Below, in pieces: positions 1 through 7,489 of a DNA stretch of 8,873 bases. The stretch spans positions 1 through 8,873 of IMG/VR virus record IMGVR_UViG_2740892232_000008; one strand, given 5' to 3'. The stretch comes from a virus. Lineage: Duplodnaviria; Heunggongvirae; Uroviricota; Caudoviricetes. The notes beneath the pieces were generated by a model. That model was not told where the DNA came from, did not search any database, and worked only from the letters and a program-made list of their open reading frames with translations. The first letter of the stretch is position 1; every line of letters begins with the position of its first letter. The position numbers and the translations under genes were made by a program.

Positions 1-552
1 GCCACTGCCGGAGCCTTCATAAGCAATATCAATGGCCACGGATTCGGTCGGGTTAAACTGCACGCCAGCTCCCCACGCCAGAGACGTGTTGCTGTGGCGA
101 CCGTCATCACTTCCGGTCAGCACGTCGTGCGTTTTCCCCTTGTTGTCAGTTACGCGGAGATAATCCCCGGAGAAAGTCGACACACGGCTGTAAGCCATAC
201 CCGCCATCGCATACGCGCTGAACCATTCATTCACGCGCACAGACGGCCCCGCCATCACGCTGAACCAGCGATTACGCACGGAATCCTCATGCCAGCGGGT
301 ATCGCTGTAATGCGTTTTTTGCTCATCTTCAGCGTTGGCATAACTGAATGACGTAATCAGCCCCAGCGTGTCCGTAAACTCATAACGGTATTTCACGTTA
401 ATCCCGTTCAGATTTTCGCTGCCGGGAGCGTTCGTACGGGCATGAAGATACCCTGCGCTCAGTGTGGCCTGCTGCTCAGACGCCCATGCAGGCGCACCGG
501 ATACGGCCAGACAGATGGCTGCGGACAAAATGGCTGCACAAACTTTACGCAT
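1..552 (-). CDS. lom: Lom outer-membrane beta-barrel protein (Ail/Lom/OmpX family); 3' end runs off the window edge (about 184 codons present)
   Basis: Reverse complement of 481-552 translates MRKVCAAILSAAICLAVSGAPAWA (signal peptide), continuing ...TLSAGYLHARTNAPGSENLNGINVKYRYEFTDTLGL...NRWFSVMAGPSVRVNEWFSAYAMAGMAYSRV..., which matches my recollection of phage lambda Lom. ATG is the complement of 550-552, with a GAGAGG Shine-Dalgarno (complement of about 557-563). It lies directly downstream of J on the same strand, as in lambda. Confidence 0.85.
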   Translation of the reverse strand, partial: MRKVCAAILSAAICLAVSGAPAWASEQQATLSAGYLHARTNAPGSENLNGINVKYRYEFTDTLGLITSFSYANAEDEQKTHYSDTRWHEDSVRNRWFSVMAGPSVRVNEWFSAYAMAGMAYSRVSTFSGDYLRVTDNKGKTHDVLTGSDDGRHSNTSLAWGAGVQFNPTESVAIDIAYEGSGSG

Positions 553-573
553 AATTACCTCTCGCTTTTCTGC

Positions 574-600
574 AATAAAAAAGGCGCCATTTCTGGCGCC
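574..600 (-). terminator. Putative rho-independent terminator between J and lom (read on the minus strand)
   Basis: Self-complementary GGCGCC (583-588) and GGCGCC (595-600) with a 6-nt loop, followed on the minus strand by a T-run (complement of the A-run at 574-582). It sits 20 nt downstream of the J stop codon. Confidence 0.45.
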
Positions 601-619
601 CGTATATGGGTTATAAAAT

Positions 620-3008
620 TCAGCTGATACTGATGCCTGCGGTGGCTTTCTTCATCACCACAACCAGCAAATCGCTGATACTTGCTGTGGGATACCAGTC
701 ATTTACCAGCCATGCTGACACCGAAAACTCCAGCGTCATGTGGCCGTGACCAGCTGGCATATCAATAACACCACTGTAAATCAGCGTATTATCCAGCGCG
801 GTACGGTTATAAATTTCAGCACCATTTTTCTTCACTATCAGGCGGCATGAGGAGTAAATATCAGTATGCTCTCTCTCATGTTTAGCACCGCTGAATGCCA
901 CCGCCGGAATAACAATCTGCCGGTCAAACGGCTGATCGTCATAAATCCTGACGGTAATGGTCCCTGATGGCCACCGCTCCGGTGCCCGGGAGTCCCGCGG
1001 GAAAGCCTTACCCACTGTTTTGACAATATCGCCTTCAATCTGGTTGGCTGACAGTTTCCCTTTAATCTGACAGTTCTCATTTATCGTAACGTTGTTGAGC
1101 GTCCCGGCGTTCGCATTCACACTGCCACTGATATCTGCATTTTTAGCGGTCAGCTTTCCGTCCGGTGTCATGGAAAATGCAGGAGGATTACCGCCGCTGG
1201 TAATGGTGGGAGCCGTCAGATATTTCAGGAACACTTCATTCATGAATATCTGATCACCCTGACCAACAAACATCGGTTTTGTGTTGCCATTTGCAGGATT
1301 AATCATCGCAATCCTGTCTGCCGCCAGCAGCACCTGACTCTGCATGCCGTCGGGGGTGTTCTCAATACCGACACCGATACCCGCAATATAAAGGCGTCCG
1401 TCCTGCATCTGCTGCAGCTTCACAGCCCACATGCTGTTCAGATTATTATTTGTATCAACCTGAACCTTCTGTATCTGCTGAATTGCCGCACTCTGGTCTT
1501 CCAGTTTCTTATTGACGGTCTGCGTGATTTCATTGCTGACATCCTTAATGGACGTCCTGATTTCAGCCAGGTCAGGCGCAAGCTGACCGTTATCAATCTG
1601 CGTCCACAGCTCCTGAGCCAGATGGGTTTTCCCTATCTCGCCTTTGAAAAAATCCAGATAGCCGGATGCATCATCACTCGGCTGACCAACAGCCTCCACG
1701 AATGCCGATTTGCCAACGGTGTTCACACTGCGAACGTAAAAATAATAATCATAGCCCGGCCTGATATTGATACTGGCGGCTATCCAGTACAGCCCCGTGC
1801 CAAGGTAGCGGGCTGTGGTTTCAACCTGCCTGATATCGGTAATCCGCTTTTCCGAGAACCAGAACTCAAACTGTACCGTCGGGTCATAAACGGCAAGATG
1901 CGGCGTGGCGGTTATCTGAAAATAGCCCGGCGTCAGCTCAATCCTCGACGGTGCTGCCGGTGCGGCAATCCGGAACGATACCGACGCCGGATCTCCCTGC
2001 TGCCCCCACGCATTTACCGCCCGGACTGTCAGCCTGTAGTTCCCCAGCGCCAGTTGCGTGAAGCGGTATGTGGTTTCCGTCGTCCGGGCCGTGCTGACCA
2101 GCCGCTCACTGCCGTCGTCCGCTGTTACGGTCAGACGGAGCAGGAAGCTCACGCCCTTCACCACCTTCGGTGTGTCCCAGCGCGCCAGCACCTGATATTC
2201 CCCGCTGTCTGCAGTGACTTCTGCGGTCAGGTGCTGCACCGCTGGCGGCGTGACACCGTTCACCGTGCCACTCTGTTCGCCGTCAAAGTGCGCCCCGTTA
2301 TCCACGATGGCCTCTTTTTCCGGCACATGCTGCACGGCGGTGATGGCATACGTACCGTCATCGTTCTCACGGATACTCACACAGCGGAACAGGCGCTGGC
2401 GCAGCGTCGGCAGCTTCAGCCCCCACACGCTGTATTCGGCAACGCCGTCAGGAACACGGCTCACTTTCACCTTAAGTCCGTCGGTGACGGACTGAACCTC
2501 CACGCTGACCGGATTACCACTTCCGTCAACCAGGCTTATCAGCGTGGTACCGGAGGATGGCAGCGTGATTTCACGGTCGAGCGTCAGCGTCCGGGTCTGG
2601 CTGTTCACCGCCAGCACGCGACCACCGGTGCTGATACCGGCATAGTCATCATCGCAGATTTCAATGACATCGCCCGGTACATGGCGAAGCCCTTCAGCAC
2701 CCACGCTGAAATCCACGGTCTGCGTCTCCAGCAGTTCCGTTTTAATCAGCCACAGCCCGGCGCGGTGTGCCTGCCCCCGGCTGGTACAGCCAAAGGCATC
2801 CATCTTCGTGACATTACGACCGTAACGGGCAATGGCCTGCGTATCTTCAACAAGCTCTGTCGCCGTCTCCCAGCCGTTGTCCGGGTCAATCCAGTTCACC
2901 TCAACGGCATTATGGCGGTCCTTCAGGGCGCTGAAGCTGTAGCGGAACGGCGCGCCATCATCCGGCATCACCACATTACTGCGGTTATAGGTCCACACCT
3001 TATCCGAC
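620..3008 (-). CDS. J: Tail tip host-specificity protein J (lambda gpJ family), C-terminal ~800 codons; 5' end lost at the N10 gap
   Basis: The 807-aa minus-strand ORF reads through the N-run (XXXX in the translation). Sequence such as ...[39 protein letters not shown]...[63 protein letters not shown]... matches lambda J from about residue 330 onward as I recall it. Stop codon TGA is the complement of 620-622. lom follows immediately, as in lambda. Confidence 0.9.
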
Positions 3009-3018
3009 NNNNNNNNNN
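3009..3018. other. Assembly gap or contig-join spacer (10 N)
   Basis: Run of exactly 10 n. Both flanking genes (J on minus, stf on plus) are 5'-truncated at it and face head-to-head. Confidence 0.95.
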
Positions 3019-5069
3019 AAATGGTGGAAGAAGCGGCACGCAACGCTGAAGCCGCCTCTCAGAGCGCAGCGGCGGCAAAGAAATCCGAAACTGCAGCGGC
3101 ATCATCGAAGAACGCGGCGAAAACCTCAGAAACGAATGCAGCTAACAGCGCACAGGCGGCAGCGACCTCACAGACTGCATCGGCAAACTCCGCGACAGCA
3201 GCCAAAAAATCAGAAACCAACGCGAAAAACAGTGAGACAGCCGCAAAGACGAGCGAAACCAACGCAAAGTCCAGCCAGACGGCAGCGAAAACCAGCGAAA
3301 CGAATGCTAAAGCCAGTGAAACTGCGGCAAAAAACAGCCAGGTTGCAGCAGCCCAAAGCGAGAGCGCGGCAGCCGGTTCTGCGACTTCAGCAGCTGGATC
3401 AGCAACTGCTGCGGCTAACAGCCAGAAAGCTGCGAAGACGAGTGAAACTAACGCAAAGTCCAGCCAGACGGCAGCGAAGACCAGCGAAACGAATGCCAAA
3501 GCCAGTGAAACTGCGGCGAAAAGCAGTCAGGATGCAGCGGCCCAAAGCGAGAGTGCCGCAGCCAGTTCTGCAAGCGCGGCGGCTGCTTCTGCCACTGCAT
3601 CAGCTAACAGTCAAAAAGCAGCAAAAACCAGTGAAACCAACGCAAAGGTGAGCGAAACAGCGGCTGCGAACTCAGCGAAAGCATCGGCAGCAAGCCAGAC
3701 GGCAGCTAAAGCAAGCGAAGATGCAGCCAGAGAGTACGCAAGCCAGGCTGCGGAGCCGTATAAATATGTCTTACAGCCGCTGCCTGATGTGTGGATACCA
3801 TTTAACGATTCGCTGGATATGATTACGGGCTTTTCGCCATCATATAAAAAAATTGTTATTGGTGACGATGAAATAACGATGCCTGGCGACAAGATTGTTA
3901 AGTTTAAACGTGCATCGAAAGCAACCTATATTAACAAATCTGGTGTGCTGACAGAGGCTGCCATTGACGAGCCACGATTTGAACGTGATGGCCTGCTTAT
4001 TGAGGGGCAAAGAACAAACTACATGCTCAATTCGGAAAGCCCTGCCAGTTGGGGGCGATCGTCAAATATGGATGTGCCCGAAACAGGGACGGATAATTTT
4101 GGTTTTACCTATGGAAAGTTTGTCTGCAACGATTCTCTGATTGGGCAAACCTCAGCCATTAATATGGCATCAATTGCTGCAACAAAGTCAGTTGATGTCT
4201 CAGGCGATAATAAACACGTGACAACCTCATGTCGTTTTAAAACAGAACTGCAGGTAAGGTTGCGTATCCGGTTTGATAAATATGACGGTAGCGCAACAAC
4301 TTTTCTTGGTGATGCGTATATTGATACACAAACGCTTGAAATTAATATGACAGGCGGTGCTGCCTCAAGGATTACAGCGAGAGTCAGAAAGGACGAAGCT
4401 ACCGGATGGATTTTTGCAGAGGCAACAATTCAGGCAATTGATGGGGAGTTAAAAATAGGCTCTCAGATACAGTATTCTCCTAAGCAGAGCGGGGCAACCG
4501 TATCTGGTGACTATATTTATCTGGCCACCCCACAAGTAGAAGATGGGCCTTGTGTATCATCTTTTATTATATCAGGAGCGACGGCGGCGACCCGCGCAAG
4601 CGATATAGTTACAGTTCCAATTAAGAATAATCTTTATAATCTTCCTTTTACGGTTCTTTGTGAGGTACATAAGAACTGGTATAAAACGCCAAATGCAGCG
4701 CCACGTGTTTTTGATACCGGCGGTCATCAAACCGGAGCGGCTATTATTCTTGGCTTCGGTCGTTCAACAGATTACGACGGATTTCCTTATTGCGATATTG
4801 GAGGAGCTAACAGACGGGTAAACGAAAACGCATCGCTTGAAAAAATGGTTATGGGGATGCGTGTAAAGTCAGAGCAGTCTACGTGCTCAGTAAGTAACGG
4901 GCATATATCCAGCGAAACAAAAACCACATGGTCCTGTATTCAGAACACCGCAATTATCCGTATTGGAGGCCAGACTACAGCCGGGTTACGTCATTTATTT
5001 GGTCATGTCAGGAATTTCAGAATATGGCACAAGGCATTGACTGATGCTCAGGTGGGGGAGTCAATCTAA
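3019..5069 (+). CDS. stf: Side tail fibre protein (lambda Stf-like repeat shaft plus a distinct distal domain); 5' end lost at the gap
   Basis: The frame is open right up to the N-run, so the ATG at 3021 is internal. LMVEEAARNA...AAKKSETAAASS...AAKTSETNAK repeats resemble the lambda Stf region around MVEEVARNAS...AAKTSETNA as I recall it. The distal ~430 aa are non-repetitive and end ...IRIGGQTTAGLRHLFGHVRNFRIWHKALTDAQVGESI. Stop TAA at 5067-5069. Confidence 0.85.
3261..3638 (+). repeat. Two full 189-bp (63-codon) in-frame tandem repeat units inside stf, with degenerate partial copies on both sides (about 3070-3700)
   Basis: The string aacgcaaagtccagccagacggcagcgaa starts at 3261 and again at 3450 (offset 189). 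The units encode NAKSSQTAAKTSETNAKASETAAK(N/S)SQ(V/D)AAAQSESAAA...ANSQKAAKTSET with only a few substitutions. Confidence 0.85.
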
Positions 5070-5350
5070 TGAAAGATTTAACACTCAAATTTGAAGACAG
5101 GGCCGACTTTTCGGCCTTTATGGATAGCACTGGCTATTATGATGACGAGTCGATGCAGGATGATATTCTTATCGACGTGATAGGTAACGTGTACAAAGAA
5201 ACCGGAGAACTGACTGAAGATGGCGAACCGGTATGTGTTAAGGAAGACGGATATTTTGTAAACGTGCGCATCATTAATGATTCGCAAATATCGTCATTAT
5301 TCGATGAATACGTGGTTGCTGTTGAGCATCAACTTCGTGGCTGGATGTGA
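5069..5350 (+). CDS. Small acidic cytoplasmic protein (93 aa), translationally coupled to stf; function unknown, candidate fibre-tip assembly partner
   Basis: ATG at 5069 overlaps the stf stop (TAATG) and follows a GGGGAG Shine-Dalgarno. The product is Asp/Glu-rich. A paralog sits at the equivalent position after the second fibre-tip copy (7202-7480), sharing DGEP and EGYFVN(V/I)R motifs. Confidence 0.6.
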   Translation: MKDLTLKFEDRADFSAFMDSTGYYDDESMQDDILIDVIGNVYKETGELTEDGEPVCVKEDGYFVNVRIINDSQISSLFDEYVVAVEHQLRGWM

Positions 5351-5359
5351 GGAAGAAAA

Positions 5360-6400
5360 ATGGCTACATCGACAGTAATTCCTGATGACATCAAAACGCT
5401 AAAATCCGACGTTAGCAAATTAAAAAACGATCAAGGAAGCTACGCAACAAAATTATATGTAGACAGCAAAGATGAAATCGTTGGTGACTGGTCTGCTTCA
5501 TGGTATCAGCAGGTATTGCCAACTAGCGGAGCTATATTTGGGAGAAAACTCCGCTCAACTCACAGGACGGCAGGTGTTGAGGATGCGTATTGCGAACTAT
5601 ACCTCAAAAAATGGATAGACAGTCCAGGTAACGCAATGGCGCGCCTTAACCTGAACGATAACGGGACAAACATTTGCTGGGACTTTACCAACCTTTATGG
5701 CGGTACGATGATTTTTCCCGGTGACAGCGGATACCTCAAAATGGGTAACTGCCTTATGTCATACAGCAAGCGTGGAAGTAACGCGCTTATTAAATTTGAT
5801 TACACCGACACATTACAGATCAAATATGCCAATCATGGGTCAACCATGACATTAAACACACAGGGAACCGCTTATGCTGGTGTTACTGCTCAATTGTGGG
5901 GCAACTCCAGCCGTCCTGTTGTTTATGAAGTCGGTGTTGATGGTGGCGCTTATATGTTCTATGCGCAGAAAAATACCGATAACACCTATATGTTAAGCGT
6001 TAATGGTGCATGTCATGCCACCGCATTTAACCAGCATTCCGACCGGGATCTGAAAGACAACATTCAGGTGATCGATAATGCAACCGACCGCATCCGTAAA
6101 ATGAACGGCTATACATACACGCTTAAAGAAAACGGTATGCCCTATGCTGGTGTCATTGCACAGGAAGCTCTGGAAGCAATCCCAGAAGTTGTAGGTTCCG
6201 CAATGAAATATCAGGACGGTGCGAGCGGATCGGAAGGTGAAGAAGGTGAACGTTATTACACAGTAGATTATTCTGGTGTTACTGGCTTGCTTGTTCAGGT
6301 AGCCAGAGAGTCAGACGACAGAATAACAGCACTGGAAGAAGAAAACGCAGAATTAAGACAAAGATTATCTGCAATTGAGGCGGCGCTTGCGTCTAAATAA
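5360..6400 (+). CDS. Short tail-fibre or tail-spike-like protein with a C-terminal intramolecular chaperone (peptidase S74-type) autoprocessing domain
   Basis: AGGAAG Shine-Dalgarno 9 nt after the upstream stop. The C-terminal ~120 aa read HS-DRDLKDNIQVID...GVIAQEALEAIPEVV...YTVDYSGVTGLLVQVARE...ITALEEENAELRQRL, matching the SD(R)xLKxNI / IAQE..E..PE.V / VDYS...LL / coiled-coil pattern of endosialidase and T5 pb1-type chaperone domains. Stop TAA at 6398-6400. Confidence 0.75.
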   Translation: MATSTVIPDDIKTLKSDVSKLKNDQGSYATKLYVDSKDEIVGDWSASWYQQVLPTSGAIFGRKLRSTHRTAGVEDAYCELYLKKWIDSPGNAMARLNLNDNGTNICWDFTNLYGGTMIFPGDSGYLKMGNCLMSYSKRGSNALIKFDYTDTLQIKYANHGSTMTLNTQGTAYAGVTAQLWGNSSRPVVYEVGVDGGAYMFYAQKNTDNTYMLSVNGACHATAFNQHSDRDLKDNIQVIDNATDRIRKMNGYTYTLKENGMPYAGVIAQEALEAIPEVVGSAMKYQDGASGSEGEEGERYYTVDYSGVTGLLVQVARESDDRITALEEENAELRQRLSAIEAALASK

Positions 6401-6406
6401 TATTAA

Positions 6407-6429
6407 GGGGCCGAGCGCCCCGTTTTATT
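6407..6429 (+). terminator. Putative rho-independent terminator after the S74-domain gene
   Basis: GGGGC (6407-6411), loop CGAGC, GCCCC (6417-6421), followed by GTTTTATT. Confidence 0.5.
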
Positions 6430-6442
6430 GGGTAGGATGAAA

Positions 6443-6736
6443 ATGGATATAACACCTTTCCTTCATGCGCTTTGTGCTGTGGCTGCGCAGCTACTGATTG
6501 GTCTTTTTACCGGGAACTGGGCTTACGGGGCGATAGCCGGTTGTACGTTCTTCATTGCGCGTGAACACACCCAGGCAGAATATCGCTGGATCGAAATGTT
6601 CGGGCATGGCAAGCGAATGAATATGCCGTGGTGGGGCGGTTTTGATACACGTGCATGGGATGTGGCAAGCCTGATGGATTTTGCTGTGCCGGTGGTGGCG
6701 TGTCTGCTGGTCTGGCTGTTGGTTAATCGTGGGTGA
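6443..6736 (+). CDS. Small integral membrane protein (~97 aa, two predicted transmembrane helices); function unknown
   Basis: The ORF track starts at a TTG (6428). I prefer the ATG at 6443, which has an AGGA Shine-Dalgarno and aligns with the start of the paralog at 7490 (MDITP...). Hydrophobic N- and C-terminal segments flank a conserved loop AREHTQAEYRWI...MPWWGGFD...AWDVASLMDF.VPVVAC shared by both copies. Confidence 0.6.
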   Translation: MDITPFLHALCAVAAQLLIGLFTGNWAYGAIAGCTFFIAREHTQAEYRWIEMFGHGKRMNMPWWGGFDTRAWDVASLMDFAVPVVACLLVWLLVNRG

Positions 6737-6746
6737 AAAAAGGTGA

Positions 6747-6875
6747 GCTGTATATGCAACGGAGGAAGAAACCCCGTTGCTGGAAGCCTGGAAAAAGTAT
6801 CGGATGCTGCTGAACCGTGTTGATACATCAACTGCACCTGATATTGAGTGGCCTACGAACCCTGTCAGGGAGTAA
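6747..6875 (+). pseudogene. tfa: 3'-terminal remnant of a tail fibre assembly (tfa) gene with no start codon or N-terminal part
   Basis: The frame opens at 6747 after an in-frame TGA and encodes ...[37 protein letters not shown], the conserved C-terminal signature of lambda, Mu and P2-type Tfa/U chaperones as I recall it. There is no ATG or Shine-Dalgarno in frame upstream. Confidence 0.55.
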
Positions 6876-6879
6876 TCAT

Positions 6880-6889
6880 NNNNNNNNNN
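6880..6889. other. Assembly gap or contig-join spacer (10 N)
   Basis: Run of exactly 10 n. The downstream ORF is open to the gap, so it is 5'-truncated. Confidence 0.95.
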
Positions 6890-6890
6890 A

Positions 6891-7205
6891 TCTTCGGCAG
6901 ATGGGCCAGACGGATTTCCTTATTGCGATATTGGTGGATCAAATAGGCGTGTTAACGAAAACGCATCGTTGAAAAAAATGGTTATGGGGATGCGTGTAAA
7001 GTCAGATCAGTCTACATGTGCAGTAAGTAACGGGCGTATATCCAGCGAAACAAAAACCACATGGGAATATATCCGGAGTACAGCAACCATTCGCATTGGT
7101 GGACAAACTACAGCAGGATTACGCCATTTATTTGGGCATGTGAGGAATTTTCGTCTCTGGCATAAAGAGCTAACAGATGCGCAGCTTGGGGAGGTTGTGG
7201 AGTGA
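6891..7205 (+). CDS. stf: Second, diverged copy of the side-tail-fibre C-terminal (LamG-like) tip; 5' end lost at the gap
   Basis: In-frame translation from 6891 reads SSADGPDGFPYCDIGGSNRRVNENASLKKMVMGMRVKSDQSTCAVSNGRISSETKTTW...IRIGGQTTAGLRHLFGHVRNFRLWHKELTDAQLGEVVE*. By eye it is roughly 80 percent identical in protein to 4780-5069. The 78-aa ORF at 6969-7205 in the track is only its tail. Confidence 0.75.
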   Translation, partial: SSADGPDGFPYCDIGGSNRRVNENASLKKMVMGMRVKSDQSTCAVSNGRISSETKTTWEYIRSTATIRIGGQTTAGLRHLFGHVRNFRLWHKELTDAQLGEVVE

Positions 7206-7480
7206 GAGATTTCACGTTGCGTTTCAGTGATAAAGCAGATTTCAGGGCATTTCTCAGGAAACTTAACTGGGAAGAGGACGAAGAGCTGCAGAATGCCGTT
7301 CTGGTTGATGAGATTGGTTTTACGTTCAGTGAGTCAGGTGTTTCTGCTGACGGGGAGCCTGAATACACGCGAGACGAAGGGTACTTTGTTAATATTCGTC
7401 TTCTTGACGATGGCTTTGATGAATCCGTGTTCCGTGAGTGGGTGGTTACACCAGAGCGCCCGCTCAGGGAGTGGTTTTAA
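7202..7480 (+). CDS. Small acidic protein (92 aa), paralog of the 5069-5350 product
   Basis: GTG start overlaps the fibre stop (GTGA at 7202-7205) after a GGGGAG Shine-Dalgarno, the same coupling geometry as the first copy. It shares D(R/K)ADF, DGEP and EGYFVN(I/V)R motifs with the first copy. Confidence 0.6.
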   Translation: MRDFTLRFSDKADFRAFLRKLNWEEDEELQNAVLVDEIGFTFSESGVSADGEPEYTRDEGYFVNIRLLDDGFDESVFREWVVTPERPLREWF

Positions 7481-7489
7481 GGGGAGCAG

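Follow-up and report, generated by a model that had tools for sequence, protein, structure and literature searches.

A mobile, putatively lectin-type side-fibre tip module and its co-inherited acidic partner gene in a Tritos-like lambdoid prophage

The stretch of viral DNA analysed here (8873 bases, IMG/VR record IMGVR_UViG_2740892232_000008, hereafter the window) holds an open reading frame (ORF) at 3021–5069, in which Ala/Ser/Thr repeats are followed by a dissimilar distal part. By sequence comparison, the encoded protein is probably part of a side tail fibre of the lambda Stf type, from a lambdoid prophage resembling Tritos, and its distal part (window 3753–5066) is a horizontally exchanged cassette of approximately 438 amino acids (aa) mounted on an Stf-type shaft. 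This distal module is probably a non-enzymatic, lectin-type receptor-binding tip exchanged between phages, and it is co-inherited with the gene of an acidic protein of 93 aa. The features on which this reading is built are the following.

3019–3752, plus strand: shaft of presumed Stf type with Ala/Ser/Thr-rich repeats, cut at its 5′ side by a contig end; full-length relatives have 790 aa and carry PF08400
3732–3774, plus strand: module junction (recombination boundary), where variable shafts meet the conserved distal cassette, from nucleotide and protein alignments
3753–3899, plus strand: conserved neck (AEPY..LPDVWIPFNDSL..), module residues 1–49, 73–96% identical among lambdoid, Seuratvirus, Warwickvirus and P2-like fibres
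3900–4622, plus strand: domain 1, a predicted ConA-like (concanavalin A-like) beta-sandwich, about module residues 50–290, from homology with the head spike of the gene transfer agent (GTA) RcGTA and from the model
4623–5066, plus strand: domain 2, a predicted Laminin_G_3-type ConA-like beta-sandwich, module residues 291–438, ending in the motif that an earlier, sequence-only reading of this DNA had pointed out
5069–5350, plus strand: 93-aa acidic partner (phrog_1361), translationally coupled to the fibre gene

A junction shared by unrelated fibres

Homology with the fibre of a P2-like (myovirus) prophage (L007) starts at 3774 and continues at 92.7% identity through 5106, and homology with the fibre of Seuratvirus VogelGryff (81% identity) starts at this same base. 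In the fibres of Warwickvirus tinuso and Lambda_4C10, nucleotide homology begins at 3732 and 3748, respectively, which places the start of homology in four unrelated fibre backbones within a 43-base interval. The protein alignment agrees with this picture: upstream of AEPY..QPLPDVWIPFNDSL the N-terminal domains and the repeat content differ, and downstream of it everything aligns. The mosaic junction suspected in the sequence-only reading is therefore real and lies at approximately 3732–3774, although it is comparison with other fibres, and not composition, that bears it out.

The same distal part is found in the protein database on N-termini of the lambda type (PF08400) or the P2 gpH type (PF12571/PF03406), as well as on those of Seuratvirus and Warwickvirus fibres and, in more distant relatives, on TSP1/Gp66-type adaptors. 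At least 80% of 3740–5350 is present in 403 of 5426 complete Escherichia coli genomes, and Tritos carries the cassette with 99.8% identity over the same interval. The module family comprises 2063 representatives at 50% clustering, many of which align over module residues 8–434 with 25–40% identity. The module is thus very common and occurs on both siphovirus and myovirus backbones, joined at a precise point, yet no experimental work describing it was found. Host recognition starts with the tips of side fibres, which are also swapped to retarget phages and phage-derived delivery particles, and the fusion point at LPDVWIPFNDSL (window 3774) offers a recipe for such fibre engineering.

A second breakpoint, seen at 4578 in many lambda-like phages, could not be established as a clean module boundary, since a sensitive search extends the Lambda_4C10 homology to 4716; past this point, the Lambda_4C10 allele has a divergent domain 2 cut by an insertion sequence (IS). 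In that phage (L003 5247–7663), IS genes lie right after the shortened fibre gene and separate it from the small partner ORF. The same truncated match (query 37–839) is also given by 4A7, mEp460_4F5, D2, 1W, 3W, and Perceval.

Base composition across the fibre

The guanine-plus-cytosine (GC) content falls from 0.568 (3021–3752) to 0.442 (3753–5066; chi-square p=6e-8), with values of 0.68 in the shaft versus 0.46 in the distal part at second codon positions (GC2), and 0.49 versus 0.38 at third positions (GC3). This raw drop of 12.6 points, together with the GC3 difference, could be explained by a recent import of the distal part from a donor of lower GC content. However, when synonymous codons were permuted within the ORF, with the protein sequence held constant, the amino acids alone predicted a difference of 0.111 ± 0.011 (11.1 ± 1.1 points) for an observed 0.126 (p=0.084), and a Mantel–Haenszel test on GC3 stratified by amino acid gave p=0.14. 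Moreover, the GC3 of the shaft (about 0.5) is itself already well under that of J (about 0.7), and the largest synonymous-site shift of the contiguous locus in E. coli LF82 is located inside the 3′ end of J (GC3 from about 0.7 to about 0.45), not in the fibre. The drop in the fibre is mostly an amino-acid effect, and composition is no proof of foreign origin; as a sign of such an origin it was rejected by both the permutation and the stratified test, and a recent low-GC import, already largely refuted, is very unlikely. The sequence-only reading had described an AT-richer shift at about 3740–3780, to be abandoned if it did not survive correction for amino-acid bias: the drop does exist, but it does not hold up after this correction.

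As a separate observation, the last ~140 codons of J (LF82 locus 4480–4897) show GC3 values of 0.40–0.50, versus about 0.7 before them, the strongest such boundary in the tail-tip region. It is probably the boundary of the J host-range module.

Two ConA-like domains in the distal module

The module was modelled with AlphaFold2 on an alignment of 50 diverse relatives (mean predicted local distance difference test score, pLDDT, 91.5; predicted template-modelling score, pTM, 0.89). The model is all beta save a terminal helix, and the neck consists of short predicted beta strands (pLDDT 81–95 after residue 10). At the fold level, it is predicted to belong to the ConA-like lectin/glucanase superfamily, as its two-sheet jelly-roll superposes on known members. 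The structural matches of the model, with their scores, were as follows.

GH43 arabinanase AbnA, domain 4: 20.0
Botulinum neurotoxin lectin-like HCN: 17.9
Pa193 gp46: 17.8
Trans-sialidase lectin domain: 16.8
CBM40: 15.8
Pentraxins: 14.7
Laminin LG and neurexin LNS: about 11–12

Foldseek ranked PB1-like baseplate wedge proteins (Pa193, E217) at the top, with E about 1e-6. Structure prediction and a Foldseek comparison had been proposed in the sequence-only reading as a check of a lectin-like tip, and the ConA-like beta-sandwich of the model is in line with it.

Domain 1 belongs to the NCBIfam family NF048003, "phage head spike fiber domain", which it matches with 50.9 bits (cut-off 36; E=2.5e-13), ORF residues 326–526 aligning to positions 1–181 of the 182 in the profile. 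It also matches the RcGTA head-spike fibre Rcc01080 (PDB 6tb9_F3), with E=1e-7 from the single sequence (phmmer) and E=5e-38 from the family profile. The latter reaches, in addition, Pa193 gp46, E217 gp45, and the C-terminal appendage of the Dit protein of Shigella phage Sf11, all at about 1e-14.

In the case of domain 2, the window sequence matches Pfam Laminin_G_3 (PF13385) with 17.2 bits (E=0.006), under the gathering threshold of 27.6 bits, and the alignment covers the last third of the profile (module residues 382–434 to positions 98–150 of 151). The paralogous copy at 6969–7205 gives E=0.051. As 33 of 50 homologues match the same family at E<=0.01 (best 1.9e-11), membership of the window domain is deduced through its relatives; the family profile also reaches C-reactive protein (E=0.006) over module residues 291–438. 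The LamG-like (laminin G-like) signature seen by the sequence-only reading at the C-terminus is accordingly a true LamG closing strand within domain 2. That reading noted this LamG-like end but overlooked a further ConA-like domain, namely the RcGTA head-spike homologue that precedes it.

The acidic partner gene

The 93-aa protein is strongly acidic (isoelectric point, pI, 4.05; 22 Asp plus Glu versus 7 Lys plus Arg), and the start of its gene overlaps the fibre stop as TAATG, the equivalent overlap of a paralogue at 7202 being GTGA. Both match phrog_1361 by hidden Markov model (HMM), the 93-aa protein over its full length (E=7.6e-46, residues 1–93 over 92 profile positions) and the paralogue with E=2.5e-39. 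When the family HMM was run over the related viral loci with enough sequence (n=72), the acidic ORF was found directly downstream of the module in all 72. It is also found in the P2-like prophage, VogelGryff, and tinuso. Judged by this distribution, the acidic ORF is the cognate, strictly co-inherited partner of the tip. The sequence-only reading had rightly noticed a small acidic ORF in place of tfa after the fibre gene, but its view that the fibre lacks a partner does not hold. In two distant loci, whose fibres are only ~30% identical, the fibre gene is followed by a homologous small ORF (GYxVNxR ... PxRxWA motifs). A scan of genome contigs for the small ORF returned three Escherichia-type loci only, and added no taxonomic breadth.

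The gene downstream of the fibre does not match the HMM of the Tfa/Caudo_TAP family (PF02413), and the 93-aa protein gave no informative fold match. Its gene stands where lambda has tfa, and its product most probably serves this non-Tfa tip as a dedicated factor for assembly or folding, or else as a stoichiometric subunit. A broader proposal, which we put forward only tentatively, is that phrog_1361 represents a previously unrecognised class of fibre-tip accessory proteins, specific for tips of the GTA-head-spike plus LamG type and functionally replacing Tfa, either as a chaperone or as a virion-borne adaptor for a second fibre. If so, what lambdoid, P2-like, T1-like, Queuovirinae, and T5-like phages exchange as their host-range cassette would really be the two-gene unit. 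In practical terms, a transfer of the module probably has to include the 93-aa partner, and not Tfa.

A distant metagenomic phage contig (L009 4001–8251) carries successive genes of 759 and 554 aa with faint and weak Laminin_G_3 matches, and a homologue of the small acidic ORF lies between them. This locus appears to encode two lectin-type tips.

Allelic divergence

Pairwise identities per domain indicate that, whenever a divergent allele is compared, conservation is lowest in the core of domain 1 (module residues 95–250, window about 4035–4502). This core is 46% identical in the CE10 allele, versus 80% for domain 2, and 63% in the VogelGryff allele, versus 85%; in two distant loci, the values are 19% versus 26–28%. 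In the tinuso and P2-like alleles, which are close to that of the window, the core is not the least conserved part. A hypervariable patch was also sought by per-column entropy over close homologues, with an uninformative outcome, as the sample was dominated by near-identical sequences. On the pattern of the divergent alleles, the domain-1 core is the likely specificity determinant.

Function of the tip

Under the reading that we favour, every chain of the fibre would carry a terminal globular head, which would reversibly bind a surface polysaccharide (O-antigen, capsule, or lipopolysaccharide (LPS) core), with its specificity set by the variable core of domain 1. This binding would provide an initial grip on the cell, ahead of the contact of the J tip with the terminal receptor. 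Glycan binding and a monomeric arrangement of the head are proposed by analogy with the RcGTA head-spike fibre, of which one flexible subunit is present per spike, with only the first ten residues resolved (PMC7296036), and which, when fluorescently tagged, shows far better binding to cells with a capsule than to those without one (PMC10218006). In small siphoviruses, the general view is that side fibres attach to O-antigen or other glycans, a first receptor that is dispensable (PMC8594841, PMC11990801). Tritos, a siphovirus that carries the cassette, forms plaques (PMC9928086), so a virion with this cassette can be functional. The homology with a capsule-binding GTA head spike thus provides a testable hypothesis about the ligand.

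Several points weigh against a lectin-type tip. The fold is also found in purely structural phage parts, such as the baseplate wedge proteins Pa193 gp46 and E217 gp45, as well as in the appendage of Sf11 Dit, and the window protein itself is under the Pfam threshold for Laminin_G_3. In addition, literature searches on lambdoid fibres and Tritos yielded neither a description of the module nor a ligand test for its enterobacterial members.

Alternatively, the tandem beta-sandwich head could mainly serve to dock the short fibre encoded at 5360–6400, with the 93-aa protein as an adaptor, to build a branched side fibre with two receptor-binding tips. Such a hub, which would be compatible with lectin activity, is suggested by the second fibre gene that follows the acidic ORF in most contexts: one of the Peptidase_S74 type in the window, a Gp34_trimer protein plus Caudo_TAP in the P2-like prophage (L007 7610–9052), and larger ORFs in VogelGryff and tinuso. 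Furthermore, the domain-1 homologue Pa193 gp46 has a loop that docks a trimeric fibre, and T5-like phages offer known cases of branched lateral fibres (PMC4728585, PMC10713586). However, in prophages of the CE10 type the module and the acidic ORF occur without a second fibre, and in 9 of 35 related loci the membrane gene is all that follows, which indicates that the pair works without a second fibre; besides, the RcGTA homologue binds polysaccharide directly. A head that acts mainly as a branching hub is therefore rather unlikely.

The head might instead recognise an outer-membrane protein. Lambda Stf has been reported to use OmpC, and LamG and pentraxin folds also mediate protein–protein contacts, like that of laminin with integrin or neurexin. 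Tritos and several virulent carriers of the module also plate on K-12, which has no O-antigen (PMC9928086). Plating on rough K-12 is, however, expected if side fibres are dispensable there (PMC8594841), the only homologue tested binds capsule (PMC10218006), and the allelic diversity fits glycan diversity, all of which makes a protein receptor distinctly unlikely. Finally, the ConA-like domains could form a tailspike-like glycan hydrolase or lyase that degrades O-antigen or capsule, but the top structural matches are to domains that bind, and none of the families matched is a hydrolase or lyase, so an enzymatic tip is highly improbable.

Composition of the window and origin of the fibre gene

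Runs of ten N at 3009–3018 and 6880–6889 reveal that the window consists of three joined contigs. Gene adjacency across either linker is consequently not biological, and readings of the window based on gene order across 3009–3018 or 6880–6889 need to be revisited. The linkers and the paralogous genes to the right of the second one are listed below.

3009–3018: N10 linker; to the left, minus-strand lom and J of another prophage; to the right, LF82/Tritos-like sequence
6880–6889: N10 linker; to the right, the end of a different, CE10-like prophage
6891–7205, plus strand: 3′ end of a fibre paralogue (domain 2, another allele), cut by the contig boundary and intact in CE10 as a 687-aa gene
7202–7480, plus strand: paralogous 92-aa acidic partner, 43% identical to the 93-aa ORF, with a GTGA overlap with the fibre stop
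7490–7786, plus strand: paralogous 98-aa membrane protein (phrog_1443)

The first piece (1–3008) bears lom and the 3′ two-thirds of J on the minus strand, and is identical to many E. coli prophages. The second (3019–6879) shares 99.2% identity with the LF82 prophage Tritos and begins at codon 108 of the 790-aa LF82/Tritos fibre gene, which in its full length sits directly after J. The ATG at 3021 is an internal Met of this 790-aa protein, because the contig boundary removes the 5′ end of the fibre gene; near-identical full-length proteins in the database carry a PF08400 N-terminal domain, and that end lies outside the second piece. In intact Tritos/LF82, the order is J, fibre, 93-aa ORF, 346-aa fibre, 97-aa membrane protein, tfa fragment, and pin invertase.

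The third piece (6890–8873) is the right end of a prophage other than the Tritos type. In the CE10 prophage, the order is J, lom, fibre (687 aa), 92 aa, and 98 aa, followed by ykgJ and a VapA-family gene. The copy of the fibre C-terminus at 6969–7205 was considered as a decayed duplicate or pseudogene remnant and rejected: it is a contig-cut paralogue, since its frame is open from the first base past the linker, and the gene is intact in CE10.

The shaft contains a tandem repeat at 3228–3647 with a unit of 189 nt (63 codons), 2.2 copies, and 83% identity, in which 42- and 21-nt periodicities are nested; fibre alleles differ in shaft length by whole repeat blocks. This repeat is probably the cause of the assembly breaks at the fibre. 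At the other end of the window, a YkgJ-type CxxCxxCC gene (7801–8235, minus strand) adjoins an ORF at 8421–8873 (plus strand, reaching the window end), which matches PF05526, the Rhodococcus equi virulence-associated protein family (E=5e-34; RefSeq "VapA/VapB family"). The latter lies just outside the prophage end, in a stretch of 28–39% GC that begins at about 8200.

Genes downstream of the partner gene

Three further features complete the Tritos-like piece.

5360–6400, plus strand: short tail fibre of 346 aa, the second of the locus, bearing a Peptidase_S74 intramolecular chaperone domain at its C-terminus (PF13884; phrog_4563 "tail fiber protein")
6428–6736, plus strand: 102-aa predicted membrane protein (phrog_1443), which closes the cassette
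6747–6875, plus strand: tfa 3′ remnant of 42 codons plus stop, from translation and the RefSeq annotation in LF82

The second fibre is a Peptidase_S74 protein, matching PF13884 with 52.8 bits (cut-off 22) at residues 227–278. Among the 35 related loci with enough downstream DNA, its N-terminal part is present in 24 and the phrog_1443 membrane protein in 33. The Peptidase_S74 fibre here and Gp34_trimer plus Caudo_TAP in the same slot of the P2-like prophage suggest exchangeable second tips or branched fibres. The phrog_1443 protein, of approximately 100 residues, ends the fibre cassette in both prophages (6428–6736 and 7490–7786) and is a candidate moron, involved for example in superinfection exclusion or receptor masking; a PADLOC scan of the small and membrane proteins gave no matches.

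As the sequence-only reading had stated, only a remnant of tfa survives, the 42-codon 3′ fragment at 6747–6875. In LF82, RefSeq labels this fragment a pseudogene ("tail fiber assembly protein, missing N-terminus"), and the pinQ recombinase gene comes next, so that in LF82/Tritos it adjoins a pin-family invertase. In the light of what is generally known about the Mu Gin and e14 Pin systems, the fragment is read here as the putative scar of an older Stf-Tfa invertible-segment cassette, displaced by the lectin-type one.

Comparison with known systems

The tip cassette is of a known kind, that of lectin-type receptor-binding side-fibre tips, and its unexplained element is the obligate acidic partner. 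One of the closest known systems is the RcGTA head-spike fibre Rcc01080 (GhsB), with which domain 1 shares homology and the strands RAS.ATY..G / EPRF..GLL.E..TN and PQ.E.G..SS.IPT...TRA.D. Both are peripheral, flexible adhesion modules, capsular polysaccharide binding being a feature of the RcGTA protein. Rcc01080 differs in that it is a single subunit of 325 aa, anchored on the capsid pentons by an N-terminus of 10 residues; the profile matches its chain up to residue 282, and the ~40 residues left are too few for a LamG domain. Domain 1 of the window, on the contrary, lies at the far end of a long tail-fibre shaft and ahead of a LamG domain, and it has a small gene as its partner.

With lambda Stf/Tfa and its equivalents (Mu S-U, P2 H-G, and the Stf-Tfa-Pin cassettes of e14, Rac, and Qin), the full-length relatives of the window fibre share the position after J, the PF08400 N-terminus, the Ala/Ser/Thr-rich shaft, and the presumed role of an accessory side fibre in primary adsorption. 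The likeness to the Stf-Tfa-Pin cassettes extends to the tfa fragment and the downstream pin of the intact relatives. Unlike in lambda, the tip is unrelated to that of Stf, and an unrelated 93-aa acidic protein occupies the tfa position, with no intact Tfa (Caudo_TAP) gene.

Among members of the Laminin_G_3/ConA-like superfamily, such as pentraxins, CBM40, clostridial neurotoxin HCN, and GH43 AbnA domain 4, the sequence similarity of the window protein is marginal (17.2 versus 27.6 bits). Pa193 gp46, E217 gp45, and the Sf11 Dit (gp17) appendage are the closest solved phage proteins, with the same type of domain 1 on a virion component, but they are baseplate or Dit proteins, not fibre tips, and Pa193 gp46 has a fibre-docking loop. 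Lastly, the branched lateral fibres of T5-like phages (DT57C LtfA/LtfB), compared here by locus layout alone, resemble the window in having a siphovirus side-fibre locus with two successive fibre genes, and relatives of the acidic ORF occur on phages and contigs of T5-like size, about 110–118 kb.

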